Below are positions 1,293 to 58,295 of a DNA stretch of 64,000 bases, piece after piece. The notes under the pieces were generated by a model, which was given only the letters and a program-made list of their open reading frames with translations, had not been told where the DNA came from and made no database searches. The DNA lies in assembly GCA_963713105.1 (NCBI GenBank), contig CAVQKJ010000004.1, forward strand, positions 548,035-612,034, read 5' to 3'. Position numbers and translations under genes: made by a program. Every line of letters starts with the position of its first letter. Positions within the stretch are counted from its first letter, which is position 1. Source of the stretch: an uncultured Chlamydiae bacterium. Lineage in GTDB: Bacteria > Chlamydiota > Chlamydiia > Chlamydiales > SM23-39.

Positions 1293-1299
1293 CGGCCTT

Positions 1300-3899: not shown

Positions 3900-3907
3900 A
3901 TTTTCTC

Positions 3908-24471: not shown

Positions 24472-25524
24472 TTACCGATACGAAGAAGACAGCGCCCAGG
24501 CATGGAACCTTTCGCTAAAAGACGCGTCCTTTTTGAGTTTATCTTGAATGGCGCGCACTTTGTCGAACCAGTAATCGGCGTAAAGCTTTTCGAGATTCCA
24601 TTTTCGGCTTTTCAATTCTTCGAGCTTTCTCTCTAAAAACTCGTCCGTCGCCTCTTCCCAGCTCTCGATAACGACGACAGGCAGGCCTTCATACAGAGGA
24701 TTCAATGTGGATCTCAAAACGATCGGATAGCAGCCCATCAATAGCGCTTCCCAGGTCCGATGGCAATCGAGGCCATTTCCTGGAGGGCTTGGAACAAAAA
24801 GCGTTTGAGAAAGGTCGGAGAGATATTCGCTGAACGATTTTTGCGGCTCAGCCCCAACACGTTTGAAATGATCCAAGCAAGGCTGCCTCGCTTTGGCGTT
24901 CGTCCATGCAGAAAAATTGATATAGAGAAACCGGTTCCGCTCCAAAGAACCTGCAGATGGAGCGCTTTTCGCTAACGGATCCAAAACCCAAACCTGTCCA
25001 TGCGGCCACACTTGGTTGGCTAAGCCGATCGGGATCGGGATGAGCCTCTCGGTCGCTTCCCTGTCGATATTTTGAACGAACCACGCGGCGATTTTGTCCG
25101 ATTTCAAAAGGAACTCGAACTCCCCTGGCTGAGGATTGTCGGTGCCGAATTCGCAATTGGGAGTGACGAGGATGAATCGATTGGATATTTTAGGCAAAAT
25201 TTTCTTGGCGAAATGGGGCAATTTGCCATATTCGACGAAAATCACATCGCCCAATTTCACTTTCTTCGGATCGAATTTCTTCTCCTTTTCGGCCACCCTC
25301 CAATCGGCAAAAAAACGCCACGTGTCTCCGGAAAGGTACGGATAGCTAGAAGCTCGCTCATATCCAAAAAGAGAAAACGCGGCAAAAATCAAAACTAAAA
25401 CAAATCTCAAGGCCCGCCTCTCAGCTTCGGATTGATATACAGCCTGTCCCTCCCCTTTGCGATCATCGAAACGTGCAGAGGGATATGTTCGCAGACCCAG
25501 GGAAGGGTCATGTTTTTCGTACAA
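24472..25524 (-). CDS. putative glycosyltransferase (exostosin-like C-terminal motif), N-terminal signal anchor
   Basis: C-terminal PGNGLDCHRTWEALLMGCYPIV resembles the GT47/GT-B-type conserved C-terminal motif. The likely start is TTG 25410 (TTGA overlapping the upstream stop), which gives an N-terminal TM segment RFVLVLIFAAFSLFGY. The ORF-track ATG 25524 lies inside the upstream gene. Confidence 0.45.
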   Translation of the reverse strand: MYEKHDPSLGLRTYPSARFDDRKGEGQAVYQSEAERRALRFVLVLIFAAFSLFGYERASSYPYLSGDTWRFFADWRVAEKEKKFDPKKVKLGDVIFVEYGKLPHFAKKILPKISNRFILVTPNCEFGTDNPQPGEFEFLLKSDKIAAWFVQNIDREATERLIPIPIGLANQVWPHGQVWVLDPLAKSAPSAGSLERNRFLYINFSAWTNAKARQPCLDHFKRVGAEPQKSFSEYLSDLSQTLFVPSPPGNGLDCHRTWEALLMGCYPIVLRSTLNPLYEGLPVVVIESWEEATDEFLERKLEELKSRKWNLEKLYADYWFDKVRAIQDKLKKDASFSERFHAWALSSSYR

Positions 25525-26420
25525 GAAAACCAGACGACTTTTCCTCTAGGCATCCGCACGCCGATCCGGTCGGGCAGCTTGTCTCGATCCCTCAAAGGAA
25601 GATCGATCGGTTTCGTCTCAGCCAAAAATTCATCATATTCTTTCAAGAAAACCGCCGTCCCCTTCTCGCGGCTCTTTTCAAGCCACTTCGCTACAGACCT
25701 CTCCAGCTCTTCCGTCACGACACCCGAATAGCGGCACCCTTTCAGCGCCTCACGCTTGTAAATCGCCACCCCTCCAAACGCTGAGTAGACCTTTTTCCAA
25801 GGCCCCTCCCGATCCAAGACAAATTCCTTCCTGATCTTGTCTAAATGGTCTAAATAAAAATTCCCCAGCAGCTCGAAGCCGATCGGCCATTCTGCCGAAC
25901 GGAGAGCGAAAAGATCGTATTCTCCATATGCGAAGACGGCGTCCCATTCTTCTTTCGGGTGACGGATCGTCTCCATCACTCCTTCCACATCCCAAGGCTC
26001 TAAAAAGTCGAGATCTACCCAAACGACGTATTTGAAATCGTCGAACTCTTTTTTCATCGCGATGTCGAGCACAATATTGCGCGCCCGCGCGATCTGCTCC
26101 GTCCGGTTCACGACTCCCATTGCCATCGCCCGCTTCAATTTCTTCGATGAAAGCTTTTCCGAACGGAAGATCACTTTAGGATTTTCTTTGGCCCAGGCCC
26201 TCAATAATTCGGGAGTCCGGTCGTTCGAATTGTTCTCATAAAGAATGACTCTGTAATCTGCGAAACGGGAACCCAATCCGGTCGCAGACCGGATCAAATT
26301 CGGCACTGCTTTTTCGATCTTGCGGCCTATGCCGCAAATCAATATTTTATCGGGAATTTGGATCTCGGCGCCGCATAGCGCCGAAGTAAAGAAGAAAATG
26401 AGCCACAAACACGCAAACAC
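25407..26420 (-). CDS. putative glycosyltransferase-like protein (DxD-containing)
   Basis: 337 aa, N-terminal signal/anchor. Has a YVVWVDLDFLEPWD DxD-like motif. No firm family assignment. Confidence 0.3.
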   Translation of the reverse strand: MFACLWLIFFFTSALCGAEIQIPDKILICGIGRKIEKAVPNLIRSATGLGSRFADYRVILYENNSNDRTPELLRAWAKENPKVIFRSEKLSSKKLKRAMAMGVVNRTEQIARARNIVLDIAMKKEFDDFKYVVWVDLDFLEPWDVEGVMETIRHPKEEWDAVFAYGEYDLFALRSAEWPIGFELLGNFYLDHLDKIRKEFVLDREGPWKKVYSAFGGVAIYKREALKGCRYSGVVTEELERSVAKWLEKSREKGTAVFLKEYDEFLAETKPIDLPLRDRDKLPDRIGVRMPRGKVVWFSCTKNMTLPWVCEHIPLHVSMIAKGRDRLYINPKLRGGP

Positions 26421-26763: not shown

Positions 26764-27516
26764 TTAGGGCAGCTTTCCAGAATGCTCCGATAAGTAAAGA
26801 GAGACGACTTCATGGAGCATTCTGTATTGCGCTTCGGAACAAACCATAGCGGGCCTCTGCATGCAGAGGCGATAGACTGTCTCTTGGACGGAAAGGCCGT
26901 TCACATCTCCCCGGTCAATCCGGTCCATCAATGCCCAAGCGGCGATGAAAGTCCCGGTCCGTCCGATCGAACTCGAACAATGGACAGCCACGGTCCCGGG
27001 ATGGATCGCTTGAGCCGCTCTGACCGTTTTGACGAGAGTGATTAACTCCTTTGCTTCGATAGATTGTGTATCGTCCCAATGATCGATGGCAAAATAATCG
27101 AAGGGCACGGCCCTCTCTTTCCAATAGGCGTAAAAAGGTTCGCCGATCCGCGAGGTGCTTGCGAGCCGGACGAGCTGGGCAGTTTGGTTCTGTTTTAAGA
27201 TGTCGAAAAATACGTCCGCATTTTCTGGCTTAGGGGCCTCTAAAGCGATGAATCGATTGCCGTAAATCTCAACAAAACTTCCGTTGTAATTCGGCGCCAC
27301 GGCGTTGTATTCAAAAGCGACGTTTTGAAGGTGGCGGTAGTGATGGCCCTCGATAATCGACTGCGAACGGGCCAATTCTGGAGCGGTTAAGATTTCTTTC
27401 CGAGTTTGATAGAGCTCTTCCCATTCTTGGGTTAGATCTCTGTCTACATCCCAAGCTAGGAAAGAACGGGCCTTTGCAAATTGATCCCAAAGCGGCTCAA
27501 CAGGAAGTGAAATCAT
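26764..27516 (-). CDS. protein tyrosine phosphatase (CX5R P-loop), eukaryote-like
   Basis: VHCSSSIGRTGTF matches the PTP signature (I/V)HCxxGxxR(S/T)G. 250 aa with no signal peptide. Confidence 0.75.
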   Translation of the reverse strand: MISLPVEPLWDQFAKARSFLAWDVDRDLTQEWEELYQTRKEILTAPELARSQSIIEGHHYRHLQNVAFEYNAVAPNYNGSFVEIYGNRFIALEAPKPENADVFFDILKQNQTAQLVRLASTSRIGEPFYAYWKERAVPFDYFAIDHWDDTQSIEAKELITLVKTVRAAQAIHPGTVAVHCSSSIGRTGTFIAAWALMDRIDRGDVNGLSVQETVYRLCMQRPAMVCSEAQYRMLHEVVSLYLSEHSGKLP

Positions 27517-33721: not shown

Positions 33722-34186
33722 GTGTCTAAAATGCAGAAATCTAAAAACTCCTTATTGGACAGCCTTCGCAGCTTACTCATGGGCAGAAAAGCGGACACGC
33801 AGGAATCTATTTGCGCAGCGCTTGAGAAGATGGGGTATGAAATCAATCAATCAAAAGTTTCCCGTCTGCTTCGCAAAGTGGGAGCGATCAAAGTGGTAAA
33901 TACAACTGGAGAAGCGGTCTATTCGCTGCCTAGAGAGCCGGCCCCCCCTTCCACTAAAACTTCCCTTGGGGACATGATTATCAATATCGTTTGCAATGAA
34001 ACGCTGGTGGTCATTTTTACAAGCCCAGGTTCCGCTTCCATGATTGCCCGAGTGCTGGATTACAACCAAATCAATACGGAAATCTTAGGAACCATTGCCG
34101 GCGACGACACGATCTTTGTCGCTCCAAAAACGATCAAAGACGTTCAGAAGCTGACCCAAGAAATCAAAAATCTATTGGGAAAATAG
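33722..34186 (+). CDS. argR: arginine repressor ArgR
   Basis: INQSKVSRLLRKVGAIKV (wHTH), VVIFTSPGSASMIARVLD, GTIAGDDTIFVAP. Essentially collinear with E. coli ArgR. Confidence 0.92.
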   Translation: MSKMQKSKNSLLDSLRSLLMGRKADTQESICAALEKMGYEINQSKVSRLLRKVGAIKVVNTTGEAVYSLPREPAPPSTKTSLGDMIINIVCNETLVVIFTSPGSASMIARVLDYNQINTEILGTIAGDDTIFVAPKTIKDVQKLTQEIKNLLGK

Positions 34187-35614
34187 AGATTTTTGCACGG
34201 CTGCAAGCAGGGTTTCCTTCTCAAGAACCCACCCAGCCGTTTTCTGGAACGCCAAGGTAGCTGCCGATACCTGATTCTCTACCTGTTTTGAAGAGGTCCC
34301 CCCGAAACTGTCTCTCGTATCGACAATCCTTTTCAGATCGAGAATCGCTTCCATGTCCTCGGAGAAAAGAGGAGAAAAGCAATGCCACTCATCCAAAGTG
34401 AGATCTTCAAGCCTCTGATGACGATCTAGGCAGTGCTTAACGATTTTTCCAACCGTCGCATGGGCTTCTCGAAATGGAATCCCTTTTTGAACGAGATAAT
34501 CGGCCAGTTCCGTCGCGTTCAAAAATCCTTGAGAGGCTGCATTCAGCATATCCGCTGAACGAACGCGGAGAGTTGCGATGAGTCCCTGATAGACGCATAG
34601 AGAAGATTCGACAGTTTTTATGGCGTCGAAAAGAGCCTCTTTATCTTCCTGCATGTCCTTGTTATAGGCGAGAGGAAGCCCTTTGAGCATCGTTAAAGTC
34701 CCGAGCAATGAGCCGTAAACTCTGCCCGTCTTTCCTCTCACAAGTTCTGGGACATCGGGATTTTTCTTTTGCGGCATGATGCTGCTGCCCGTGCAATAAG
34801 CATCGTCTAGTTCGATGAAAGCAAACTCTTGGCTGCACCATAAAACCAGCTCTTCGCTCAGTCGGGAAAGATGAGTCATGATCAGGGCTGCGTCGGCTAA
34901 AAATTCCACGCAGAAATCTCGATCGCTCACTGCATCGATGCTATTTACATAAAGGGAATCGAACTTCAGCAGATCTGCCACCTTGTGCCGATCGATCGGG
35001 TGCCCAGTGCCGGCTAAAGCGCACGCTCCAAGCGGAAGCTGATTGAGTCTAGGCCAAAATCCCTGAAGTCTCTCTACATCTCTCTGCAACATGGAAACAT
35101 AGGCCAGCAAATGGTGGGCGAATAAAATCGGCTGCGCCCTCTGTAAATGGGTATAACCGGGCATGATTACAGATATATGAGCGTTGGCTTTGTCTAAAAG
35201 AGATTCCTGGAGCTCTTTTAGCAACCCGACAATACTCACTGTTTTGCTTCTCAAATAGAGATGAAGGTCGAGGGCTACCTGATCATTTCGGCTTCTAGCA
35301 GTATGGAGTTTGCCCGCCAAGGGCCCGATTAAACGCTTCAGTTCGCTTTCCACTTTCATATGAATGTCCTCATCCGCAGGAGAAAAAGAAATTTCTCCTT
35401 CGGACAAACGGCTTGCAAGCGTTAAAAGGCCGTTTCGAATTTTCTGCATCTCATCGGCGTTGAGAATTCCAACATTTTCAAGCATTTCGACGTGCGCAAG
35501 GCTGCCCAAAATATCTTCTTTCGCCATCACGTGATCGAAAGCAATCGAGGCGGTGAATGCTTCGACCTGAGAATCGACCGCTTTCGTAAATCTGCCATCC
35601 CATAATTTATCCAT
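34172..35614 (-). CDS. argH: argininosuccinate lyase ArgH
   Basis: MDKLWDGRF... fumarate-lyase family with GSSIMPQKKNPD signature; 480 aa. Confidence 0.93.
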   Translation of the reverse strand: MDKLWDGRFTKAVDSQVEAFTASIAFDHVMAKEDILGSLAHVEMLENVGILNADEMQKIRNGLLTLASRLSEGEISFSPADEDIHMKVESELKRLIGPLAGKLHTARSRNDQVALDLHLYLRSKTVSIVGLLKELQESLLDKANAHISVIMPGYTHLQRAQPILFAHHLLAYVSMLQRDVERLQGFWPRLNQLPLGACALAGTGHPIDRHKVADLLKFDSLYVNSIDAVSDRDFCVEFLADAALIMTHLSRLSEELVLWCSQEFAFIELDDAYCTGSSIMPQKKNPDVPELVRGKTGRVYGSLLGTLTMLKGLPLAYNKDMQEDKEALFDAIKTVESSLCVYQGLIATLRVRSADMLNAASQGFLNATELADYLVQKGIPFREAHATVGKIVKHCLDRHQRLEDLTLDEWHCFSPLFSEDMEAILDLKRIVDTRDSFGGTSSKQVENQVSAATLAFQKTAGWVLEKETLLAAVQKSLFSQ

Positions 35615-36815
35615 GATGCCCCATCAATCTAAGTGCGTTGAGTTTTATGAACCCCTTTGCGTCGGTCTGGTCGTATCCGCCAATCGCATCCATGCTTGCG
35701 ACATGGGGCTGGTAAAGGGAATAGGGGGAGCTTCTTCCAGTGATCATCACATTGCCCTTATAGAGAGTAAGAAACACTTTACCCGTCACATTTTTTTGAC
35801 TTTGCTGAACGGCCGCCATGAGAAAATCCATCTCCGGACTGAACCAAAAGCCGTTGTAGATGATCTGGGCGATTTTGGGAGCCAGGCTCTCTTTGAGCAG
35901 AATCACTTCCCGATCCAGGGCGACTCCCTCTAAGTCCAGGTGGGCTTTTAGCAAGATCGTCCCCGCAGGCGTTTCATAAACCCCTCGCGATTTCATCCCG
36001 ACAAAGCGGCTTTCAACAAGGTCGGCCCTTCCAACGCCATGCTTTCCGCCCATCTCATTGAGGTATTTGAAAAGGTTTACGGAGCCCTCGATCTTTTTAC
36101 CGGAGTGCATTTCTTCAACTGAAACAGGAATGCCCGCTTTGAATTCAACCGAGAGGCGGATCTCTTCGTCAGGGGCTTTTTTAGGGGAGCATGTTTTAAT
36201 GAACATGTCCTCGGTCGGAGAACTCATCAAATTCTCTAACTTCCCCCCCTCGAAGCTCGTATGCATGAGATTTTCATCTATGCTATAGGGTTTTTCAAGC
36301 GTCGAAGTAACGGGAATCCCATGCTTATGCGCATAGTTTAATAGATCCGTCCTTCCTGAGAATTGCATTAAAAATTCGATCTCTTTCCAAGGGCTGATAA
36401 TTTCGGCATGCGGAATGTGCTTTAAGATTGCGAGCTCAAAGCGGACTTGGTCGTTCCCCTTCCCTGTAGCTCCATGAGCAAAACAGATGCTGTTTTCCGC
36501 CTTTGCGATTTCAACGAGTTTTTTCGCGATGAGAGGCCTTGCGAGCGATGTGCCCAGCAGGTATTTCCCCTCATATACGGCGTGAGCTTGCAAAGAGGGA
36601 AAAATAAATTGCTCGACGAACTCTTGCTGCACGTCGGCAATGTGAACTTTTGAAGCGCCGATGGAAATCGCCTTTTGCTTGGCCTCTTCGAAGTTTTCCT
36701 TTTGACCCACGTCTGCGATAAAGCAGACGACATCGTGCCCTTTATTGATCAGCCATTTGAGTATGACGGATGTATCAAGCCCTCCGCTATAGGCTAAAAT
36801 CACTTTTTTATTCAT
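35607..36815 (-). CDS. argG: argininosuccinate synthase ArgG
   Basis: KVILAYSGGLDTSV (PP-loop), 402 aa; 8-nt overlap with argH. Confidence 0.93.
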   Translation of the reverse strand: MNKKVILAYSGGLDTSVILKWLINKGHDVVCFIADVGQKENFEEAKQKAISIGASKVHIADVQQEFVEQFIFPSLQAHAVYEGKYLLGTSLARPLIAKKLVEIAKAENSICFAHGATGKGNDQVRFELAILKHIPHAEIISPWKEIEFLMQFSGRTDLLNYAHKHGIPVTSTLEKPYSIDENLMHTSFEGGKLENLMSSPTEDMFIKTCSPKKAPDEEIRLSVEFKAGIPVSVEEMHSGKKIEGSVNLFKYLNEMGGKHGVGRADLVESRFVGMKSRGVYETPAGTILLKAHLDLEGVALDREVILLKESLAPKIAQIIYNGFWFSPEMDFLMAAVQQSQKNVTGKVFLTLYKGNVMITGRSSPYSLYQPHVASMDAIGGYDQTDAKGFIKLNALRLMGHHG

Positions 36816-42139: not shown

Positions 42140-44665
42140 CTACATGCCGCAAAAACCTTCAGAAACTGGCGTCGTTCCAGATTGATCGATAGTGCCTGTA
42201 TTGCCGGTCAAAGGCTCAACGCTGAACTGACCGCTCCCCATGTTATTTAGCGCGTAATCTGGCTCCGTAGCCTCCATGGTGGATTGATTGTTTTGCATGC
42301 GTAGACAGACACTCGCAGAATCTTCCGGAACTATTGTGACTGCGGATCCAGTATTCAAGTCCATCAGATTATTGCCCATGAAGGTATTGGCAAGAATCTC
42401 ATACTTAGCATGACTATTGGTGTTAGGCTGAGCAAAAAAGCCGGCTCCGTTGTTGTTGGTCACTGTGTTCCCTTGCATGACAACATTTATTGAAGAATCA
42501 TCTGAAGAATCTGCTTCCACCCCTCCATTATTATTATTGATTGTATTATTTAGAATGACGAGATTACTATTTGACGAAACAAATCCCTTCAGAAATAACC
42601 CAGCTTTACCTATTTCAAATATCTGATTTTCTTCAATGGATGCAGTCAACGATGAGGTGCCATAGGCAGCCGTTGCAATCCCTTGAGCATCCCCATAACG
42701 GGAAACCCTATTCGAAATAACGTTAAAGATCCCTGTTGCCGATTCAGATTGGGTTAGGAGGTTCGTATCGAGAACAATCCCACTCCCTAAAGGACCGTTC
42801 GATAGAACGTTATTTTGAATCAATCCCGTCATTGAAGAGACTCCCTCGGCTTGCGCGATGATGCCGAATACAAACTCATTCGTTCGGTTGTTCAACAGCT
42901 GAAATGTCGCTGTGGCATTGTCATCGGATAACAGAAAAGTTCCTACCCCTGTTAAAGGGACCCCTTCTAGTTGATTTTCTTGAACGATAGCCGAAAGAAT
43001 GGGAGTTCCCGTGAATGCATGGAAGTCAATCCCGTGTCCCACACAATTCGAGATCTGATTCCCTGAGACAGAGGCGCTAGCAATGCTTTGATTTTGGACG
43101 AGAATTGCAATCCCCGATCCGCTGGGAACAGGAACATCAGGAGGGTTAAGGGTGTCATTTTGAAAATTAGAAATGATATTGTTCTCGATGGTATAGACGC
43201 CGTTTCCGCTCGTCTGAGAAAGATAGATTGCATAGGTTCCCTGGCCATCTCCAGATTGAAGAGTATTGCTGGTAATCGAAACCTGTCCAAACGGCTCATT
43301 TGGAATAATTCCTGCTGCCCCGTTATTCGCAGTCAGAATATTCTGAGAGACGGCAAGATCTCTCGTCGCACCCGATAACGACCCAATACAAAAACTTCCC
43401 TGGGCAGTCCCATTCGCATCAGAAGCAATTTGAAAACCAGAAATTGAATTATTGTTAGCGACCGTTACCACGGAAGTTCCCATGGGGGCTGTCAAACTAG
43501 GCAATCCCTTTGCTTGCGGCGGGATCGAAATCGATCCAATGGTCGTCAACAACGTGTGGCTTATTCCGGCTCCGAAAAGGCGCTGATTATCTTTGAGCAC
43601 AATCCCTAAATCCATCCCTGCAGATGTTCCATCTCCAGGGAAAACGTAAATGACATCTCCGGATGCGGAGGCGTTTTGAGCGGCGATCAACGTGGGGAAG
43701 GGAGATTCGAACGTGCCTTTCGAATGGCTTGTATTATTGACAAACCAGAAGAAATAAGGCTTTCCTGTAGAAGGATCTATAGCCTTGACTGTGCTTTTTT
43801 TCCGATCGACGGGAATGATTTCAAATCGATTGATGGGTTGAACGGAGCGAGTTGCCAGAGCTACAGCTGTTGAACAAGATTGGCAGGCCTTCCTTTGGAT
43901 TTCTCGTTTGCATCCAAAGGGAATCACAATGCTGAACTGTCCTTGTCCTGTCCAACGGAAGACTGAATCATAGGATGTAAAACCTTCCAATTTGCAATAC
44001 TTGAAAAGATCGATCTCCACCCTTGCCTCGCCTCCCCAAGCTACGTCCCCGTGTCCGGCGAGATAATAGGGTCCAGCTGCAATCGCGATATCCACATTCT
44101 TCGCAGCATTTATATGCGCTGCCGCTTCCGCATTCGCGCCTCTTAGAGCAAATTCCTTTTTTCGAGAAAGAAGAGCGAAATGGCTTTGAAATCGATCAAA
44201 ATGCGTTCCCCAAAAGGCGCTTCTTGTTTTTCCGACGGGAAGATAACCATTGATCCGGAAATCCCACACTTCGCCCAGAGATTCGAGACCGGCTGCAATT
44301 TGGTTGTAATGCTGTCTATGTGTTTTCCGATAGTCATAGTAAGTATTAGCGCCCCAAACCCGTGAAGAAGCGAGATATCGTACTCCAACTCCAGCATTTG
44401 CTGCCGGCCGCCCACTATTGAAAAGATGTCCCCGGAGATCGACGAAAGGGATCCAGGCATCGCCAAGAGGTCGGTTCGGAGAAAAAAAACCTTCCAGAGT
44501 CGTATACCCTTGGTTGTAGCCGATTCCTCCAGGTTCAATGTGTCGCGCCGCAACGCGCATGGGACGAGGGCTTTCTTGTTCAATTTCCTCTCCAAACACG
44601 GATACACAGAACAAACTACAAAGAAATAAAAGGGCAACCTTCGAATCTACTTTCATCTTGGACAA
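42140..44665 (-). CDS. large secreted adhesin-like protein: N-terminal beta-barrel-like domain (inverse-autotransporter/intimin-invasin-like?) plus parallel beta-helix repeat passenger
   Basis: Signal peptide. ~250-aa amphipathic beta-strand region, then long N/S/T/G-rich repeats (NNxISGxxI..., pectate-lyase-like beta-helix pattern). C-terminus is not aromatic, so there is no C-terminal barrel. Confidence 0.45.
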   Translation of the reverse strand: MSKMKVDSKVALLFLCSLFCVSVFGEEIEQESPRPMRVAARHIEPGGIGYNQGYTTLEGFFSPNRPLGDAWIPFVDLRGHLFNSGRPAANAGVGVRYLASSRVWGANTYYDYRKTHRQHYNQIAAGLESLGEVWDFRINGYLPVGKTRSAFWGTHFDRFQSHFALLSRKKEFALRGANAEAAAHINAAKNVDIAIAAGPYYLAGHGDVAWGGEARVEIDLFKYCKLEGFTSYDSVFRWTGQGQFSIVIPFGCKREIQRKACQSCSTAVALATRSVQPINRFEIIPVDRKKSTVKAIDPSTGKPYFFWFVNNTSHSKGTFESPFPTLIAAQNASASGDVIYVFPGDGTSAGMDLGIVLKDNQRLFGAGISHTLLTTIGSISIPPQAKGLPSLTAPMGTSVVTVANNNSISGFQIASDANGTAQGSFCIGSLSGATRDLAVSQNILTANNGAAGIIPNEPFGQVSITSNTLQSGDGQGTYAIYLSQTSGNGVYTIENNIISNFQNDTLNPPDVPVPSGSGIAILVQNQSIASASVSGNQISNCVGHGIDFHAFTGTPILSAIVQENQLEGVPLTGVGTFLLSDDNATATFQLLNNRTNEFVFGIIAQAEGVSSMTGLIQNNVLSNGPLGSGIVLDTNLLTQSESATGIFNVISNRVSRYGDAQGIATAAYGTSSLTASIEENQIFEIGKAGLFLKGFVSSNSNLVILNNTINNNNGGVEADSSDDSSINVVMQGNTVTNNNGAGFFAQPNTNSHAKYEILANTFMGNNLMDLNTGSAVTIVPEDSASVCLRMQNNQSTMEATEPDYALNNMGSGQFSVEPLTGNTGTIDQSGTTPVSEGFCGM

Positions 44666-45561: not shown

Positions 45562-48500
45562 TCAAAATTCTTTCCCCGCTTTTACAATGAATGTGTTGGA
45601 CCAATAGACGCCGCTCCATTCCCCTTCGTAGTCCGCGGAGAGGAATCCTCCGTTATTCCATCGATAGAAAAATTCGATCCCAGGCGCGATCAGGTTCTGT
45701 GTTTGGGTCAGAGTTTCGACTGTAAATGTCCCGGCGGGCGCTCCGACGAGAGCCGCGCTGACGCGGCCATTGCCGCTCAATGGCTTTTTATTCACATAGG
45801 AGAGAGATTCTCTCACGATGAATAGACCATAGCCCGTTTCGGACTCGTTGTCGAAAAGAGTCTGATAACAGGAAAGCCCTACTTCGCTGCGGAGCAGGGA
45901 CGAAGTGCGGGAGTCCTGGCGCATGTTGAGCGGGCTGGCCCCGCGTTCTGCAAAACCATCTTCGAAATTGACCGCACAATCGAATCTCGCAAAAGGTTCA
46001 AGCGCGACGCAGCCGAAGAAATAATCAAGACCCAACTCTGCGTGAGGCACGACTTGCCACCCATGTGTGCGGCTGGTGGCCGCCGCGCTAAACCCATTGA
46101 AGAAGATATTCCTCTTTCCATGCGTTTGATGATAACCGCCCCAAAGCGCGAGATCGAGATAGAAAGTCGAGCCGAAGTAACTGCCGTATAGTGAAGCGAC
46201 ATAATCGTTCAGCCGCGCCTCGCCGAACCCGTTGTCTTCGTCTAAATTGATATGTGCATATCCGAGAGAGAATCCGACAAGGAACCGTTCTAAATTAAAA
46301 GCGTCGAAACCGGCTAAGATGCCTCCGGCATTAAAATCGAATGCGGGCGTTTGCTTCTGTGCTTGCTCGCGGCCGAATTCTCCAAAAGGGGCGGCCCAAA
46401 CGCTAAATCGCGCGCATCGCGGCTGCGGACATATATTTCCGCACGATTCTGTCCCGTTCATGGCAACCAACGATGCGACTTGCGGGGAAGAATAAATCCC
46501 CGCGCCGGACGCCCGGATGAAGCGGCGGTTGGATATCCGCGACTCGAGAATGTCATTGAAAGCAAAGGCGCTATTTTGAGATGCGAAAGTAGAAAAGGCA
46601 TTTCTCGCTGGACTGATCAAATCCAACGCTTGATCGATTTGACTTGCGGAAAGGGAAACGAATTTATCGAAAATCGGAAACAGAGGAAGGAAATCCTGGT
46701 TGTTGAGCGAGTTTAGATAATTGGCAAGACTCAATCGATTACCGGTCAAATGGCCCGTGGGGATGGAATAGAAAACCTCGTTCGCGTCTATTGTTAAAAA
46801 GAGGATTTGTCCTGCCGCATTGAGGGAAAGGGAGAGCCGCGGCAGGAACGCTGGATCCATGCTTTGGATCGTAAATAAAGGGCCGGAAATCGTTCCCGAC
46901 GGGGTTTCAAGAATAGAATAGGAAGTCCCGGAAAAATAGTCGCCCGGGTCTTCATCTACGAAAAGAATAGCGCCTGACGCGATGCTCGCGCCGCCCGTTG
47001 CGATGACCTTTGAAGAGGCGCTTGGGTCGATCTCTATTGCATAAGTCGAACCGCTATCGTAAGTAACCGCTCCATCCACAGTCAAAGTGCCGATCGAGTT
47101 GCCTGGATTTAGAGTGCCCCCGTTCAGTATTTCCGCCGATCCATGGATGATGCCTGTTCCGCCGAGCGTAGCGGTTGAATCGACTGTTACGTCGCTTTCC
47201 ACCGATCCATCGAGCGTAAGACGTCCAGCCGCAACAGTTGTCGGCCCGGTGTAGGTATTGGCCCCGGATAAAGTCAAAATCCCCGCTCCTAACTTTTGGA
47301 GGGCGCCTGGCCCCGTGCCATCCGCGATGATGCTGCTGATCGTGGAATTAAAGCTTCCCACATCTATGATTCCTAAAATACCGCTATTGATGCCGATGGG
47401 AAGGTTGAAAGGATTGATCGCGGCCGAAAATTGCAACGTGCTATTGCTTTCAAACGTCACGCCTCCGCTTCCCAAGTTGCCGACAGAACCGATCGAAACT
47501 GTCCCTCCATCGATCTGCGTGCCTCCTGTGTAGGTATTGGATCCCGAGAGAATCACAGTTCCACTATTCATTTTAATCACTCCGCCCCCTGGACCTCCGC
47601 CGGCGCCTCCGCTAATTATGTCGGCTGCCAGCGTCACGGAGCCTGCATTGTCGCAGACGAAGGTGCCTCCGGACATAAGAAAAATATCCGGCCCAAAACT
47701 TTGCCCCCCAGATGCGCCTCCTCCGCCACCGCTTCCCGCAGCAACAGTATTCGCACTTGAATTCCCGAATTGAAGAGTATCCGTCAACGTAAAGGTTCCT
47801 CCCTGCCGGATAAAAATAGCGCCGCCTAAGCCCGCTCCTCCTCCGCCCCCGCCGCCGCCATTTCCACCAAAAGCGCCGCCCGTTCCTCCAGGCGATATGC
47901 TGCTACCCCCTCCGCCCGCGCCAAACCCGCCCGCTCCTCCCTGCATTGCGGCGTCGCTTCCATTTACGAAACCACCGCCGCCGCCTCCTCCTCCAAATCC
48001 CCCTCCTCCTCCTTGATTCGATGAAGTGATGACTCCGCAGCCTCCTCCTCCGCCGCCAAAATTATTCGATGAGGCAGCGCCCCCTGATCCCGCTCCAGGA
48101 GAACTGACCACTGAGTATCCGCCGCCGCCGCCGCCGCCGCCGATATCCCCGCCAACTCCACCATCCCCGCCCAGATCGAACGACATTCCTCCTCCGCCGC
48201 CTCCTCCAGTGCCGGTGGAGGGTAATCCATTTCCGCCATTTCCTCCTCCGCCGCTGCCTCCTCCTCCGCCTCCAGCAGCGTTTCCTGCAACGGCATCGCC
48301 TCCATTTGCACCGCTTGACATCCCACCCGCGCCTCCGCTGCTGCCTCCATTTCCTCCTACATCAGTGCCCTGGCCGTTCTGTCCATTTCCACCGAAAATT
48401 CCGCCGCCCCCTCCGCCGCCGGAATTCGTTCCTCCACTGTTTCCTCCAGTTCCAAAAAGTCCTCCTCCTCCGGAACCGCCGCCGCCCATCGTAGCTGCAC

Positions 48501-49185
48501 GGCCCGCTCCAAATAATCCTCCTCCTCCACCGCCTCCTGCGGGATTGGGTCCCAAAACGCCTCCTCCGCCATTTGCATTCATCCCCCCGCCTCCGCCTCC
48601 TGAGGCAAAAAGTTGGCTCGGGGAACTTATTAATGCAGCCGCCCCATTTCCACCATTGGCAGCATTGCCATTGAACGCAGCAGCGGTTCCCATTGTAAGG
48701 CTCGCGTTCTGGTTAACGAAAAGAGCGCCTCCAGCCCCAAGCCCTCCGCTTCCTCTTCCTAATCCTCCAGCTCCTCCTTGAGCGGATAAATGAGCCATAT
48801 TGATATTGTTGATCGTCACATCGCCTGAATAGACTAGGAGACCCCGGAATGTTGTGCCGGTTCCGTCCAAAGTGAGTCCCGCTACATGATTCGAGTTGAT
48901 GATTAGACTATTTCCCGGTGCGATCATGATTGGAGGGAGATTCGCTGACTTCGTAGTCCAGACGAGAGAAGTGCCGGCCGTAACAGCTCCGCCAAATGTA
49001 ATTGTATTCATAGGATCGGATGGCGCGGCATTAATTGCGTTGATAGCCGCCCGAAGCCCGTTTGTTCCGTCGTCGACGTTGGCGACAGTGACGTTGAAAG
49101 TATTTAACGGCCAGACTGAGGAAGAGAAAAGGGTAAGCAATAAAGTGCCGGCGAGTGTTTTTTTCATTTTTTTCCCATTTGGCAT
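45562..49185 (-). CDS. giant Pmp-like autotransporter with ~350-aa Gly-rich low-complexity passenger segment
   Basis: Signal peptide MKKTLAGTLLLTLFSSSVWP. Residues ~130-480 are >60% Gly. C-terminal ~300 aa is an autotransporter beta-domain ending ...YWSNTFIVKAGKEF, paralogous to the C-terminus of the 14599 gene. Confidence 0.75.
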   Translation of the reverse strand: MPNGKKMKKTLAGTLLLTLFSSSVWPLNTFNVTVANVDDGTNGLRAAINAINAAPSDPMNTITFGGAVTAGTSLVWTTKSANLPPIMIAPGNSLIINSNHVAGLTLDGTGTTFRGLLVYSGDVTINNINMAHLSAQGGAGGLGRGSGGLGAGGALFVNQNASLTMGTAAAFNGNAANGGNGAAALISSPSQLFASGGGGGGMNANGGGGVLGPNPAGGGGGGGLFGAGRAATMGGGGSGGGGLFGTGGNSGGTNSGGGGGGGIFGGNGQNGQGTDVGGNGGSSGGAGGMSSGANGGDAVAGNAAGGGGGGSGGGGNGGNGLPSTGTGGGGGGGMSFDLGGDGGVGGDIGGGGGGGGYSVVSSPGAGSGGAASSNNFGGGGGGCGVITSSNQGGGGGFGGGGGGGGFVNGSDAAMQGGAGGFGAGGGGSSISPGGTGGAFGGNGGGGGGGGAGLGGAIFIRQGGTFTLTDTLQFGNSSANTVAAGSGGGGGASGGQSFGPDIFLMSGGTFVCDNAGSVTLAADIISGGAGGGPGGGVIKMNSGTVILSGSNTYTGGTQIDGGTVSIGSVGNLGSGGVTFESNSTLQFSAAINPFNLPIGINSGILGIIDVGSFNSTISSIIADGTGPGALQKLGAGILTLSGANTYTGPTTVAAGRLTLDGSVESDVTVDSTATLGGTGIIHGSAEILNGGTLNPGNSIGTLTVDGAVTYDSGSTYAIEIDPSASSKVIATGGASIASGAILFVDEDPGDYFSGTSYSILETPSGTISGPLFTIQSMDPAFLPRLSLSLNAAGQILFLTIDANEVFYSIPTGHLTGNRLSLANYLNSLNNQDFLPLFPIFDKFVSLSASQIDQALDLISPARNAFSTFASQNSAFAFNDILESRISNRRFIRASGAGIYSSPQVASLVAMNGTESCGNICPQPRCARFSVWAAPFGEFGREQAQKQTPAFDFNAGGILAGFDAFNLERFLVGFSLGYAHINLDEDNGFGEARLNDYVASLYGSYFGSTFYLDLALWGGYHQTHGKRNIFFNGFSAAATSRTHGWQVVPHAELGLDYFFGCVALEPFARFDCAVNFEDGFAERGASPLNMRQDSRTSSLLRSEVGLSCYQTLFDNESETGYGLFIVRESLSYVNKKPLSGNGRVSAALVGAPAGTFTVETLTQTQNLIAPGIEFFYRWNNGGFLSADYEGEWSGVYWSNTFIVKAGKEF

Positions 49186-51031: not shown

Positions 51032-51253
51032 ATGGGTTTAATACTACTGATTGTCTTAATCTGTTTGATTGTGTTGGTTTTACCTACTTGGCCCTACAGC
51101 CAAGGATGGGGATACGGTCCAACAGGTCTTATCTCGATTGTTTTAATTGTAATTCTCGTTTTGATTCTCGCTAATATTATTGCATTCTGGACAGTTGAAG
51201 TGGAGTCAAACGATAACGGGACAACGATCAAGATCGAAAAGCAAGAATATTAA
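51032..51253 (+). CDS. small two-TM membrane protein, DUF3309-like
   Basis: LVLPTWPYSQGWGYGP between two hydrophobic helices; AGGAG-like SD upstream. Confidence 0.5.
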   Translation: MGLILLIVLICLIVLVLPTWPYSQGWGYGPTGLISIVLIVILVLILANIIAFWTVEVESNDNGTTIKIEKQEY

Positions 51254-51322
51254 GACATTTAGAGTGTGGTCTTAACCCTCTTGTTAAAAAATAGTCCTAT
51301 TTAGATAATGCCTTCTTTAAAT

Positions 51323-51399
51323 GGCGCGGGGTGCCTGGAATACCAGGCTGAGAGAGTCCCGTGGAACCTGATCTAGGTAATGCTAGCGAAGGAAACGCC
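51323..51399 (+). promoter_or_regulatory. TPP (thiamine pyrophosphate) riboswitch, THI-box aptamer
   Basis: GGCGCGGGGUGCCUGGAAUACCAGGCUGAGAGAGUCCCGUGGAACCUGAUCUAGGUAAUGCUAGCGAAGGAAACGCC. Conserved GGGGUGCC, CUGAGA, ACCUGAUCU.GGUAAUGC.AGCG.AGGAA blocks align with the E. coli thiM aptamer. P1 is GGCG/CGCC. The aptamer's 3' GAAGGAAAC doubles as SD, 4 nt before ATG 51403. Confidence 0.8.
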
Positions 51400-51402
51400 T
51401 CT

Positions 51403-52113
51403 ATGAATTTAAGCATTTCCCGCGATCGTCTCGCGGGAACGGCCGGGAATTTTCTCGAGCCTCATGAATTAGATCTTCTTTCTCCCTTGCGAGTCTGCCA
51501 GCAGGGACTGACCCATTTTAGTCAAAGCGCGTCAAAGACAAATTCTCTAGAGCAAATCTTGCGGATCTTCCATAAGACAATCAAAATCATCTCGCTGCTT
51601 TTAGAAAAAGCGGGAGCGCTCTTAAATAAATGTTCTATCCAAATCGAGCAAAGCGTCGAAGTACTCGGGGTCGTTCAAGGAGTCCAGCTCATTCAAGAAT
51701 TCTCCTGCCCCGACAGCCAAGGACTTTATCTCTTTCAAAGTGCAAGTTGGCAAAAATGCCTCGGACGAGGTTTTCTGTTCGGATACAATATCTTGTCGAA
51801 TCTCAAGCTTGCAGAGAAACTAGAGCTCATTCATCTGCCCGAGATGACTCGAATCGCAATCGGGAGTTGTTCTATCCTTCGCCTGGCCACCGATGTTTCT
51901 TATCTTTTCTATCGCCTCTCGGCCCTCAGTGAAGGAATCCGAACGGGAAGACTCTGGCAAGCAGCCATCTCTGTAAGCAAGGTCTTTACGACAATCTTTT
52001 CATTGATCTTGAGGATTTTAAATGTCCGGGCCACCCTCTTAGTTCTCGCCTTGACGTGCGTCAGCGTTCTAACCGATGTAAGTAATTTAGCAAAAACGGA
52101 GAAATGGATATGA
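51403..52113 (+). CDS. hypothetical protein with C-terminal bilobed hydrophobic domain (Inc-like), first gene downstream of the TPP riboswitch
   Basis: ATG 51403 (MNLSISRD...). The ORF-track start 51361 is a translation of the riboswitch. C-terminus has LWQAAISVSKVFTTIFSLILRIL-NVR-ATLLVLALTCVSVLTDV. Confidence 0.5.
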   Translation: MNLSISRDRLAGTAGNFLEPHELDLLSPLRVCQQGLTHFSQSASKTNSLEQILRIFHKTIKIISLLLEKAGALLNKCSIQIEQSVEVLGVVQGVQLIQEFSCPDSQGLYLFQSASWQKCLGRGFLFGYNILSNLKLAEKLELIHLPEMTRIAIGSCSILRLATDVSYLFYRLSALSEGIRTGRLWQAAISVSKVFTTIFSLILRILNVRATLLVLALTCVSVLTDVSNLAKTEKWI

Positions 52114-52559
52114 GAATACTTTGCCTCTGTCTCTTGTTCTGTTCTTTCCTTTGCGCGGATAGTCTTTCTGTCGACTACGAAAGGATGAACAAAGAAACAT
52201 TTTATGAGAAGATCGCAGGCAATACTATCGTAGGGATCACGCGTCAAAGCCGAAGTCTTTACATGCTTTATTTTCTGGCGGATGGCACTTGTGAACTTTG
52301 GAAACAAAACCAAATTTATTCCGGCCGCTGGTGGATCGATCAGGGTCTAAACGGAGAAGATATTGTCCATGCCTTTTGGCCCAATTACATTTCTCAAGAG
52401 CCGAAATCTCTCTTTTCCCCTAAAAATCCCAACTATGGAAAGCCAACTTCCCTGCGTTACTATCTCAACCCGTCAACCGGCGGGATCTTTATCGCAGGCA
52501 AGTCTTTTCAAACAGCGGTTCTATTAGTTCCGGGATGCGCCTTCCCTTCTGCTGAATAG
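52104..52559 (+). CDS. secreted hypothetical protein, second gene of the riboswitch-controlled operon
   Basis: Signal peptide MDMRILCLCLLFCSFLCADS. ATGA-type overlap with the upstream gene. 3' end overlaps the convergent tkt by ~70 nt. Confidence 0.45.
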   Translation: MDMRILCLCLLFCSFLCADSLSVDYERMNKETFYEKIAGNTIVGITRQSRSLYMLYFLADGTCELWKQNQIYSGRWWIDQGLNGEDIVHAFWPNYISQEPKSLFSPKNPNYGKPTSLRYYLNPSTGGIFIAGKSFQTAVLLVPGCAFPSAE

Positions 52560-54393
52560 AATGCAGAATCGCTTCTTTTGTATACCCAAAGCGCCTCGCT
52601 AAATCGCTGCTCGCTCCCGATTCACCAAACCCGTTCAGGGAAATCGCAATTCCTTCCGCGCCGATATATTTGTGCCACCCTTGATCGACGCCCGCTTCGA
52701 TGCTGATCTTGATCTGGCCCCGCAGAAGAGCTTTTTTGTATGAAATGGGTTGTTTTTCAAACAATTCCCAAGAAGGCATGGAGACCGCTCGAGCAGATGG
52801 GCCTAGCTCTTCGGCCGCTTCAAGGGCTAAATGCACCTCCGATCCCGTGGCAATGAGCAGATAGACCGCTTCTGCAGTAGTTTCTTGCCGCACGATATAG
52901 GCGCCCCGTCCCACCCCCTCCTCGAAAGAGCGGGCAGGAAGCTCCTTTAAAGGCTGTCGAGAAAGAATGAGTGCCGTAGGGCCCTCGTGCCGAAGAGCGG
53001 CGAGCCAGGACATTTTGACCTCATTGGCATCCGCTGGACGCAATACTAAAAGACCCGGAATGGCGCGAAGGGATGCAATCTGCTCGATGGGTTGATGCGT
53101 AGGGCCGTCAGGGCCGATAAAAATTGAATCGTGCGTCAGTTGATAAATCACTTTGAGCCGCATCAGGCATGTCATCCGGATGGCGCTGCGCATGTAGTCC
53201 ACGAAACCAAGGAAAGTCCCTATGAATGGAAGAAGCGAACCCGTCTGCGCCATTCCAGCAGCAATGCAGGCCATGCCGAATTCCCGAACCCCGTATTTAA
53301 TATTGCGCCCTTCAAACTGCCCCGCTTGAATGACCTCGTATTTTTCCAAATAAGTGCCATCCGAAGAAGAGAGGTCGGCAGAACCGCCTATCAATTGCGG
53401 AAGATGATCGGCCAGAACCTGAAGCGCTGCATGAGACGCCCATCGTCCAGCTATTGGAGAAGGGATCGAGATGTTTTGGAGGATCGATTCCAGATGACAG
53501 GACTCTGAAATCGCGGATGGAGAAGGACAACCTCTTGCGCCCTTCTGTCTAAAGAACTGATAGATTTCCGGATCCACATAGAAAGAAACATCCGGCAATC
53601 CTAAATCTTTCTTAGCTATTGCAATCTCTTCTTTTCCAAGCGGACGGCCGTGGGCGGCGGGCGTTCCTTGCTTGTTCGGCGCCCCGCAGCCGATGCGCGT
53701 ATGGGCAATGACCAAAGTAGGTTTTGCTTGATGTATCTTAAGAGGCGCTAAAGCCGCTCTAATTTGATCCAAGTTATGGCCGTCTATCGCGACAACATTC
53801 CATCCTTGGGCTTGGAAACGCAAAGGGAAATTCTCTGAAAAGCTCTCCTGAACGTATCCATCCAAAGTCGTGGAATTGCTGTCGTAAATGAGAATTAAAT
53901 TATCGAGGTTGAGGTGGCCTGCTAAGGAACAGGATTCCATAGCGACCCCTTCCATTAAATCCCCGTCCCCTGCTACGACTACGACTTTAGAATCGATTCC
54001 CAGATGCTTTAATCCGAGAGCCTGCCCTACCGCGTACCCAACTCCTTGCCCATCCACGCCGGTTGTCGCCTCTACCCCTTCTGTTTTAGTCAAGTCGGGA
54101 TGACTGGGTGTTTTGGAATCGATTTGTCTAAAATTTCTCAAATCATCCAGCGTTAGAGGAAACCCAGCGAGATGCAAGCAGCTATAAAGCCAAAGAGACC
54201 CATGCCCAACAGAAAGAATTAAACGGTCTCGATGAGGCCATTTTGGATAAGAGGGATCAAAACTTAAAAATTCGCCAAATAGATAGGCCCCCAATTCAGC
54301 GCAGCCCATCGGCATTCCTGGATGGCCGGAACCTGCGAGCTCAACCGCATCCATCGTGAGATGCCGGATCGTGTTTGCGATTCTTTTCAACAT
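52489..54393 (-). CDS. tkt: transketolase
   Basis: GSGHPGMPMG (TPP-binding), 634 aa, collinear with bacterial Tkt. Confidence 0.93.
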   Translation of the reverse strand: MLKRIANTIRHLTMDAVELAGSGHPGMPMGCAELGAYLFGEFLSFDPSYPKWPHRDRLILSVGHGSLWLYSCLHLAGFPLTLDDLRNFRQIDSKTPSHPDLTKTEGVEATTGVDGQGVGYAVGQALGLKHLGIDSKVVVVAGDGDLMEGVAMESCSLAGHLNLDNLILIYDSNSTTLDGYVQESFSENFPLRFQAQGWNVVAIDGHNLDQIRAALAPLKIHQAKPTLVIAHTRIGCGAPNKQGTPAAHGRPLGKEEIAIAKKDLGLPDVSFYVDPEIYQFFRQKGARGCPSPSAISESCHLESILQNISIPSPIAGRWASHAALQVLADHLPQLIGGSADLSSSDGTYLEKYEVIQAGQFEGRNIKYGVREFGMACIAAGMAQTGSLLPFIGTFLGFVDYMRSAIRMTCLMRLKVIYQLTHDSIFIGPDGPTHQPIEQIASLRAIPGLLVLRPADANEVKMSWLAALRHEGPTALILSRQPLKELPARSFEEGVGRGAYIVRQETTAEAVYLLIATGSEVHLALEAAEELGPSARAVSMPSWELFEKQPISYKKALLRGQIKISIEAGVDQGWHKYIGAEGIAISLNGFGESGASSDLARRFGYTKEAILHSIQQKGRRIPELIEPLFEKTCLR

Positions 54394-57236: not shown

Positions 57237-58295
57237 CTAGAACTTGAAGAGAAACCTGCAAGTTCCCCCCTGAAGGATCAATGCATTATTCAAGAGGCCT
57301 GAAAAGTGTTGAAAAAATTGCAGATGCTGCATCCAAACTTGCAATTCATATCCAAGTTTTAAGGTAAATTGGGCCCTCTTTCTAAAAGTATAGTCCCAAA
57401 CAAATCCAGCCGCGCTTTGCAGTGTTAAGGATCCCATATTTCTATCGGGCTGAGTGTTGATTGTGTTTACGTTAATGGTCGTGTAAGCCACTTCATTGAA
57501 GGACCAGTGTCCCCACATAAAAACTTGCGATAAATCGTAATACATACTGAATGCATGCTTATGAACACACCCAATATTCCACTGACTGTTTAATCCGGCA
57601 ACAGGACCTACTCCCCAAAAATGGTGTTTCAACATTTCCTCAGCGTTGTAAGGAATAATCGTATTGGAGTTCATCCAATCGGCTTGAATGTTTTGATGGA
57701 TCCATCCCCCTTGGACTCCCAAAAATGGACGCAGAGACAAAAATGGACTTACCCAACAAACTCTGCCGATATCCCAGTTGAACATGTTGAACAAAACATG
57801 CCACTTGATCTTTGCTTCGTTAAATGACAATGAGAATGCTGGCAAAGTCAAGAGAAAATCGGTTGCTATAAACTGACTTTGTATGACCAAGTCAGGAGTG
57901 GAAAAGACATGGCTTGAGCCGCTTGTATGATACCAGGTGTAATAAAGTTGGGTATTCCAAAGATCGTGATCTAAAGTATAGGAGATTCCCGTTCTCGCAC
58001 CAGTGCTCCAATCGAAGACGACCGCTTCTAGCGAGTCAGAAAACGCTCCGCTAAATGCGCCTGAAGCTGGGGTAACAAATCTGGGATTTACGAGAAATGC
58101 CCATTGGGTGTTCGTTTCTTGAAGATTCCAATAGAGAATGTCAGCAAAAAGGTCCCATTTTTTCGTTTCATTTTCACACACATCTATCGAATTGCATGAG
58201 GGAGGGATAGAGTCATCTGTATTAGAGTATCCCTTTGCTGTCATGAGTGATAACAGGATGGCAAAGACCCTCCCAATTTTTCTGATTCTCATCAC
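57237..58295 (-). CDS. MOMP-like outer-membrane beta-barrel protein, tandem paralog 3 of 3
   Basis: Signal peptide. KWDLFADILYWNLQE, HFWGVGPVAGLNSQW, C-terminal ...RFLFKF. Confidence 0.6.
   Translation of the reverse strand: MMRIRKIGRVFAILLSLMTAKGYSNTDDSIPPSCNSIDVCENETKKWDLFADILYWNLQETNTQWAFLVNPRFVTPASGAFSGAFSDSLEAVVFDWSTGARTGISYTLDHDLWNTQLYYTWYHTSGSSHVFSTPDLVIQSQFIATDFLLTLPAFSLSFNEAKIKWHVLFNMFNWDIGRVCWVSPFLSLRPFLGVQGGWIHQNIQADWMNSNTIIPYNAEEMLKHHFWGVGPVAGLNSQWNIGCVHKHAFSMYYDLSQVFMWGHWSFNEVAYTTINVNTINTQPDRNMGSLTLQSAAGFVWDYTFRKRAQFTLKLGYELQVWMQHLQFFQHFSGLLNNALILQGGTCRFLFKF

Follow-up and report, generated by a model that had tools for sequence, protein, structure and literature searches.

A Thiamine Pyrophosphate Riboswitch Followed by Two Genes of a Formerly Larger Permease Operon, with a Candidate Role in Thiamine Acquisition

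In the 64-kb stretch of DNA analyzed here (hereafter the window), a thiamine pyrophosphate (TPP) riboswitch aptamer of the Rfam family RF00059 (51317–51412, plus strand) is followed on the same strand by two protein-coding genes, open reading frame 1 (ORF1; 51403–52113, 236 aa) and ORF2 (52104–52559, 151 aa, or 149 aa if translation starts at 52110). As delimited by homologue and profile searches, ORF1 consists of a relic of a permease of the major facilitator superfamily (MFS), which makes up about residues 1–27, and of a conserved helical protein that ends in a bilobed hydrophobic hairpin; ORF2 encodes a signal peptide and an eight-stranded lipocalin-like beta-barrel. We propose, with a probability of about 0.6, that a TPP OFF-riboswitch gates a thiamine-related unit that once comprised permease, ORF1, and ORF2, and that the products of ORF1 and ORF2 bind or deliver thiamine or a related compound.

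The riboswitch was identified by its covariance model. In a cmscan search against Rfam 15, positions 51317–51412 matched RF00059 over model positions 1–105 with 74.1 bits (gathering score 54.3; E = 1e-12), and this was the sole Rfam match over the whole 64-kb window at gathering thresholds, at which no rRNA or tRNA was detected. An earlier note on this DNA, made from the letters alone, had described a THI-box at this place, and the elements it quoted are genuine: GGCG (51323–51326) pairs with CGCC (51396–51399) to form P1, and CUGAGA (the pyrimidine sensor) and ACCUGAUCUAGGUAAUGCUAGCG are in place. The pyrophosphate-sensor sequence ACCUGAUCUgGxUAAUxCCAGCG was also matched in the alignment to the RF00059 consensus, and the variable P3a stem is absent, with 11 model positions deleted in the cmscan alignment. 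The minimum-free-energy fold of 51317–51420 recovered the aptamer helices P1–P5; the centroid structure of the ligand-free ensemble lacks P1, P4, and P5. When 11 aptamers from the window and its relatives were folded jointly with RNAalifold, P1, P2, P3, P4, and P5 were all kept, and compensatory double changes were found in 6 of the 21 aptamer pairs. A GTG-initiated open reading frame from 51361, whose product starts with MEPDLGNASEGNAS, is the aptamer translated as codons, as had been supposed; the same peptide string also lies ahead of the first gene in every relative, because the aptamer is conserved there.

The ribosome-binding region (51389–51405, plus strand), as read from the sequence together with the Rfam structure line, is embedded in the aptamer. 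The Shine-Dalgarno core AAGGA (51389–51393) lies 9 nt ahead of the AUG (51403–51405), its AGG forms the 3' strand of P4, and the 3' strand of P1 (51396–51399) sits between the Shine-Dalgarno sequence and the AUG, which follows 3 nt past P1. The earlier note was therefore right to place the Shine-Dalgarno sequence in the 3' half of the aptamer, but the stretch that it positioned 4 nt before the ATG, GAAGGAAAC, ends 6 nt before it. The string GAAGGAAACGCCU.UAUGA was invariant in 10 loci save for the 3-nt spacer, and in the ligand-free ensemble the AUG was unpaired with a probability of about 0.8 and the Shine-Dalgarno sequence with about 0.5. With 3 nt between P1 and the AUG, and with the Shine-Dalgarno sequence inside P4/J4-1, a terminator cannot be accommodated, so the riboswitch must act on translation. 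A separate expression platform would not be needed: with the Shine-Dalgarno sequence in the P4/J4-1 strand of the aptamer, closure of P1, P4, and P5 stabilized by TPP would hide the ribosome-binding site directly upon ligand binding and so form a translational OFF switch. A downstream anti-Shine-Dalgarno element, UUUUCU (51451–51456) opposite AGGAAA, was considered and rejected, as it offers just six pairs including a G-U and has nothing else in its favour. Further upstream, a consensus scan yielded a sigma-70-like promoter candidate, TTGTTA-17-GATAAT (51281–51309, plus strand), which ends about 8–13 nt before the aptamer. It has 9 of 12 consensus matches, which is not above the count in shuffled sequences, and its -10-like GAYAAT is kept in relatives in the DNA alignment; these positions may thus be regarded as a putative promoter.

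Comparison with related loci changed the picture of the operon. One such locus was found in a scan of genome contigs and three short ones in a scan of metagenome contigs, and the same TPP riboswitch was present, at 71.8–74.5 bits, in all 11 distinct related loci with upstream DNA. In six relatives (L002, L006/L007, L010/L011, L012, L013, and L015), the gene next to the riboswitch encodes an MFS permease of 413–431 aa, and ORF1 comes only after it; ORF2 follows ORF1 in the MFS-intact loci, at 1–10 nt or overlapping, except in L006/L007. The permeases of these relatives match Pfam MFS_1 and Sugar_tr, and their best NCBIfam match is TIGR00883 (metabolite/H+ symporter; E = 2e-63, below the cutoff). 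In a tblastn search with the L010 permease, its residues 1–32 matched 51403–51489 of the window (plus strand) at 50% identity, and neither a second MFS copy nor a full 12-helix MFS domain was found in the 64-kb window. Conversely, ORF1 residues 1–29 matched the 5' ends of the MFS genes of L012, L013, and L015 at 50–59%, and the N-terminus of window ORF1, MNLSISRDRLAGTAGNFLEPHELDLLSP, can be aligned to that of the permease (MKLIISRDRLAGMVGNFLEHYDNALFGLLSPF in L012, for instance). Thus, the first 27 or so permease codons survive as the start of ORF1. The two-gene operon directly under the riboswitch that had been described from the sequence does exist in the window, but with the MFS gene lying in between in six relatives it is not the original state, and the arrangement in the window is secondary. 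The idea that the system lacks any recognizable transporter also did not hold, because ORF1 begins with about 27 residues left over from an MFS N-terminus; the ancestral operon held a member of a recognizable transporter class, an MFS permease, that the window has lost.

The junction itself (51476–51489, plus strand) could be placed by comparison with the intact sister locus L012. In the DNA alignments, the window tracks the permease gene through the pyrimidine-rich microhomology CTTCTTTCTCCCTT and then runs on as ORF1 GCGAGTCTGCCAGCAG; in L012, the corresponding sites are CCTCCTTTCCCCTTTC in the MFS gene and CCTTCCTCCCCTGCGAG at the start of ORF1, with an imperfect pyrimidine-rich repeat at both, CCTCCTTTCCCCT and CCTTCCTCCCCT. 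Because the two L012 sites share this repeat, the fusion of the MFS start to ORF1 is best explained, as far as the alignments can tell, by a microhomology-mediated, in-frame deletion of about 1.2 kb. Similar events were seen in other relatives. L008 carries a fusion of about 31 permease codons to ORF1, L009 retains a 158-aa permease remnant with an in-frame internal deletion that starts at the same spot, and in L016 a riboswitch-proximal "MK" is joined straight to ORF1 (RVSPV...). All four alterations (window, L008, L009, and L016) are in frame. In a neighbour-joining tree of concatenated ORF1 and ORF2, the window was sister to the MFS-intact L012 with 94% bootstrap support, L008 and L009 grouped together at 100%, and L016 fell outside both clades with weak support. 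The MFS gene was thus lost or gutted in at least three independent lineages, namely the window, L008/L009, and L016. A more divergent locus, L018, whose ORF1 shows 41% identity (hhalign E = 1e-41), has the order divergent TPP riboswitch (72.4 bits), 90-nt spacer, ORF1, and ORF2, and no MFS gene. Several further observations concern these loci. In both independent fusions (window 51457–51486; L008 4055–4093), polar or acidic residues have appeared in what remains of permease helix 1, including the same Gly-to-Asp change (ALFGLL to ELDLL or SFDLL), with an extra 3-codon deletion in the window. A gene for a DDE transposase follows a C-terminally truncated ORF1 in L006 (4636–5668) and in L007, both of which lack ORF2, and an IS3-type element lies just downstream of ORF2 in L008 (6025–7136).

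Two conserved hairpins were found by RNAalifold in the relic coding region of nine loci, at 51421–51437 (CCGCGA..UCGCGG) and 51445–51458 (CGGGA-AUUU-UCUCG) on the plus strand, both within the first 20 codons; their stems are nearly nucleotide-invariant over the nine loci and show no covariation. When conserved degenerate columns of the six intact permease genes were counted, the codons were identical in all six genes in 7 of 19 columns among codons 1–32, versus 14 of 133 among codons 33–300 (Fisher p = 0.006). The hairpins may belong to the expression platform or may narrow the site at which ribosomes land, and they may explain why three of the deletions stop just 3' of them. The riboswitch resembles the Escherichia coli thiM and thiC leaders, being of the same aptamer family, having all helices but P3a, and being predicted to turn expression off by hiding the ribosome-binding site. 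It differs from them in that it has no separate anti-Shine-Dalgarno helix, that the Shine-Dalgarno sequence is within the aptamer and the AUG 3 nt from P1, that P3a is absent, and that the two conserved hairpins lie within the first 20 codons. A TPP OFF-riboswitch with its ribosome-binding site inside the aptamer is a compact arrangement of an ordinary RF00059 member.

Both genes and the riboswitch have been maintained after the loss of the permease. Pairwise ratios of nonsynonymous to synonymous substitution (dN/dS) were 0.13–0.29 for ORF1 and 0.09–0.23 for ORF2, and they were no higher in pairs with MFS-less loci than in MFS-intact pairs: the window versus L012 gave 0.28 and 0.23, and two MFS-intact loci gave 0.29 and 0.21. 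By these ratios, both ORFs are under purifying selection. The aptamer with the ribosome-binding site differed at only 1 of 81 sites between the window and L012 and at 3 of 82 between L008 and L009, and in these comparisons the dS of the adjoining ORFs was 0.42–0.48; because it is nearly invariant next to such values, the riboswitch has been kept up in the MFS-less lineages. In all 11 distinct loci in which DNA upstream of an ORF1-ORF2 pair is available, the riboswitch is present. Three outcomes named beforehand in the earlier note would have spoken against its THI-box, namely a score below the gathering threshold, helices that do not covary, and the gene pair occurring in relatives without a THI-box; the score lies above that threshold, the helices covary, and no pair lacking a THI-box was found in these 11 loci. 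These results bear on whether the locus is a degenerating remnant left after the loss of the transporter, with ORFs and riboswitch no longer functional in this genome. The missing MFS gene, the relic N-terminus with its 3-codon deletion and polar substitutions relative to intact MFS proteins, and the insertion sequences that disrupt or flank the locus in L006/L007 and L008 would all fit such decay. However, both ORFs are intact, the window/L012 dN/dS ratios do not exceed those of the MFS-intact pair, the aptamer is a single site of 81 away from that of L012, and an independent sequencing run (L001) yielded identical protein sequences. We therefore regard decay as very improbable.

ORF1 belongs to a family with few relatives. 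It has 19 homologue clusters at 57–75% identity among 5.8 billion proteins, most of which lack the first 23 or so residues of window ORF1, and a profile search gave 61 relatives among 1.84 billion representatives. The family includes paralogues of 350–410 aa that share the N-domain and the terminal hairpin with ORF1 and carry a coiled-coil insert ahead of the hairpin; none of these long relatives has a Pfam match. Neither ORF1 nor ORF2 matched a Pfam or NCBIfam family at E ≤ 1, which agrees with the earlier note in finding no likeness of either gene to a known thiamine transporter or enzyme, and a profile search of the PDB gave no sequence relative of ORF1. ORF1 is predicted to be all-helical, with a weak AlphaFold2 model (mean predicted local distance difference test [pLDDT] 55.6; predicted template modeling score [pTM] 0.34). 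Its C-terminal bilobed hydrophobic hairpin (residues 184–230; 51952–52092, plus strand), which was delimited by Kyte-Doolittle hydropathy, the alignment, and the long paralogues, is divided by LNVRA into two lobes, and its Kyte-Doolittle means over 19 residues are 1.4–2.1. The hairpin is conserved in the family, also in the long paralogues, and is followed by a conserved tail, LAKxEKWI.

ORF2 can start at 52104, which gives 151 aa and a 10-nt overlap with ORF1, or at 52110, which gives 149 aa and an ATGA overlap; the upstream ATG is favoured because homologues begin with MDLRK or MDVSK. A length of 151 aa and an ATGA overlap, which had been claimed together, thus each fit one start codon and cannot both hold. 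The homologues of ORF1 and ORF2 overlap or are no more than 10 nt apart in the loci examined, and the two genes appear to be translationally coupled. ORF2 was correctly described as a signal-peptide protein, as it begins with a hydrophobic signal-like helix; it was also considered as a lipoprotein, and this was rejected, since homologues have Y, S, or W in place of the Cys that precedes the cleavage region. The predicted structure (pLDDT 90.5) is an eight-stranded antiparallel barrel whose nearest folds are ToxS, Tp17, VtrC, and lipocalin; W, Y, and F are prominent among its invariant columns, and a PDB profile search gave one insignificant match only (E = 0.18). Judged from this model, ORF2 is probably an exported ligand-binding barrel. 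Its homologues fall into 78 clusters, and relatives bear the labels Parachlamydia sp. and Verrucomicrobia bacterium, which are labels of metagenome-assembled genomes. In L017 (4044–6085), an ORF2 homologue is flanked by genes for a ketopantoate-reductase-like protein (ApbA/PanE) and a NUDIX hydrolase, possibly another cofactor-related setting for the barrel. In L019, a DUF7790 protein is encoded beside ORF2; it was considered as a relative of ORF1 and proved unrelated (hhalign probability 0.2).

The architecture of ORF1 raises a host-directed alternative, in which ORF1, as an inclusion membrane (Inc)-like protein, would sit in the vacuole (inclusion) membrane and ORF2 would be released to the lumen, the two capturing host thiamine or TPP when TPP is scarce. 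ORF1 residues 184–230 form a bilobed hydrophobic domain of about 45 residues, within the Inc-type range of about 40–60, and the 350–410-aa paralogues have a coiled-coil before the hairpin, which is an Inc-typical architecture. The organism also looks chlamydia-like or of the Planctomycetes-Verrucomicrobia-Chlamydiae (PVC) superphylum, with four PF05150 paralogues and, nearby, eukaryote-like phosphatase and glycosyltransferase genes in the window; the labels of the ORF2 relatives point in the same direction, and, for biotin, Chlamydia is reported to exploit a vitamin transporter of its host at the inclusion (PMC3459881). However, the ORF1 N-terminus, where a type III signal would be sited, has been replaced by MFS residues in the window and L008 and by "MK" in L016 with the gene retained, and these three independent replacements argue against a required N-terminal type III signal. 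The ancestral operon moreover coupled the translation of ORF1 to that of a permease of the inner membrane, and this coupling suggests that the complex is one of the bacterial membrane; the ORF1 hairpin is modest in hydrophobicity, and the Sec-type signal of ORF2 leads to the periplasm and not to the vacuole. The Inc-likeness proposed for ORF1 in the earlier note thus stands as to its bilobed hydrophobic C-terminus and is weakened as a strict assignment by the three replacements. ORF1 resembles Inc proteins in its hydrophobic domain, the coiled-coil paralogues in its family, and the probably chlamydia-like bacterium that encodes it, and it differs from them in that its N-terminus is replaceable and its gene is coupled to a permease gene under a riboswitch. 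No Inc protein with a permease-coupled, riboswitch-controlled arrangement was found in the literature, and we know of none. Overall, a host-directed role appears rather improbable.

The closest folds of ORF2 point to a further alternative. ToxS and VtrC are partners of signalling proteins, not vitamin binders. ORF1 and ORF2 might likewise have nothing to do with thiamine, serving instead in, for example, envelope maintenance or ToxS/VtrC-like sensing, and might simply have been left behind passively by the permease deletions. The pair is like ToxR/ToxS and VtrA/VtrC in that a membrane protein is paired with a periplasmic lipocalin-like barrel, although the sequence identity of ORF2 to ToxS and VtrC is just 9–11%; unlike ToxR and VtrA, ORF1 has no recognizable DNA-binding domain or evident periplasmic domain, and the pair is under the control of a vitamin riboswitch. 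VtrC and ToxS bind bile salts. In favour of such hitch-hiking, ORF2 occurs without a riboswitch in L017 and L019, and any permease deletion would leave the downstream genes on the only promoter. It accounts poorly for the comparative data, however: the four independent alterations all keep the frame and the riboswitch-controlled start, the aptamer is almost invariant in the MFS-less lineages next to an adjoining dS of about 0.45, the distant L018 keeps riboswitch, ORF1, and ORF2 with another spacer and no MFS gene, and no ORF1-ORF2 pair without a THI-box was found among 11 distinct loci. We consider hitch-hiking unlikely.

Our preferred explanation is that of a thiamine-related unit. The ancestral unit consisted of the riboswitch, a metabolite:H+ symporter-type MFS permease, ORF1, and ORF2, and in the window a deletion welded the first 27 or so codons of the permease, with their riboswitch-controlled start, onto ORF1. 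ORF1 would be a helical protein anchored by its C-terminal hydrophobic hairpin, and a membrane/periplasm complex of ORF1 and ORF2 would bind or hand over thiamine, thiamine phosphate, or a precursor when cellular TPP is low, feeding whichever permease is available. Several points weigh against this proposal. L018, a single divergent sequence, accounts for every compensatory change in the aptamer, and the other ten aptamers are nearly identical; operon membership alone can reflect hitch-hiking; and, because ORF2 occurs alone, without ORF1 or riboswitch, in the more distant L017 and L019, its role is not necessarily tied to thiamine. Binding proteins are not normal partners of MFS permeases. The hydrophobicity of the ORF1 hairpin is only moderate, and the topology of ORF1 and any contact with ORF2 are guesses, because the model of ORF1 is poor. 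A bolder version, in which the pair constitutes a new vitamin B1 capture system of chlamydia-like intracellular bacteria that is induced by TPP starvation, operates without the MFS permease formerly encoded beside it, and consists of an exported lipocalin-like thiamine or TPP binder tethered to or cooperating with a hairpin-anchored helical protein, is put forward only tentatively; such a system might act at the interface between pathogen and vacuole, and would then bear on the way in which thiamine cofactors are drawn from the hosts.

The surroundings of the unit were also inspected. A gene for a DUF3309 small membrane protein (51032–51253, plus strand) lies directly upstream of the putative riboswitch promoter; it is missing at the equivalent position in the other loci save L001, which is an independent copy of the window sequence, and is therefore not part of the unit. 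At the other end, the 3' end of ORF2 overlaps a convergent transketolase gene (52489–54393, minus strand) by 71 nt (52489–52559), and L015 has the same convergent overlap over 52 nt (5043–5094). Transketolase is a TPP-dependent enzyme, and read-through from the riboswitch operon would, given the overlap, be antisense to the 3' end of its gene. Four paralogues of PF05150, the Legionella major outer-membrane protein family, are encoded on the minus strand (23382–24443, 57237–58295, 58311–59369, and 59347–60420), with three arranged in tandem; according to ChlamDB (PMC7145651), this domain is seldom found beyond Legionella and the PVC superphylum, and no domain is more frequent in Simkania. The paralogues hint at a Simkania-like or chlamydia-like organism, and a chlamydia-like or PVC host-associated bacterium is likely; the window holds no marker gene for taxonomic placement. 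A protein with a eukaryote-type protein-tyrosine phosphatase domain (26764–27516, minus strand) and a CAP59-like/GT2 glycosyltransferase (25407–26420, minus strand) could possibly serve host interaction. The window also holds a purine biosynthesis cluster (540–10179) with a purC-purE fusion (2586–3899), purH, purL, and an AIR-synthase-like gene, as well as argG/argH (34172–36815), a capacity for purine and arginine biosynthesis that is unusual for classical Chlamydiaceae. A very glycine-rich autotransporter of 1207 aa with PATR repeats (45562–49185, minus strand) adjoins an 841-aa protein that combines an inverse-autotransporter beta-domain with a beta-helix (42140–44665, minus strand).

Riboswitch-guided gene discovery has so far been the main route to new vitamin transporters. 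The transporters that have been linked to TPP riboswitches include ThiT, ThiBPQ, PnuT, ThiV, ThiXYZ, YkoEDC, CytX, ThiW, and ThiU (PMC6593275, Table 1). As with those transporters, the placement of a THI-element marks the genes of the present unit as candidates for thiamine acquisition, and the ancestral operon starts with a permease; ORF1 and ORF2 match none of those families, and the permease has been lost altogether from the window. Literature searches turned up no account of a TPP riboswitch with this MFS permease or with this gene pair, and for Chlamydiae none of any TPP riboswitch, apart from a comment on the scarcity of riboswitches in that group. To our knowledge, an MFS permease of the metabolite:H+ symporter type is not recognized among the transporter families listed in that table. 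In the present case, the riboswitch marks two unannotated "hypothetical" families with about 60–80 clusters in billions of sequences, which seem to be confined to chlamydia-like or PVC bacteria. The locus shows how a regulatory start site was recycled onto a new gene by deletion, and the persistence of the linkage between riboswitch, ORF1, and ORF2 through repeated in-frame permease loss makes an unusually strong comparative case that the pair itself responds to B1 status. Should ORF2 prove to bind thiamine or TPP, bacterial B1 uptake would gain a lipocalin-type binder, and the unit would provide a testable handle on cofactor acquisition by intracellular bacteria.

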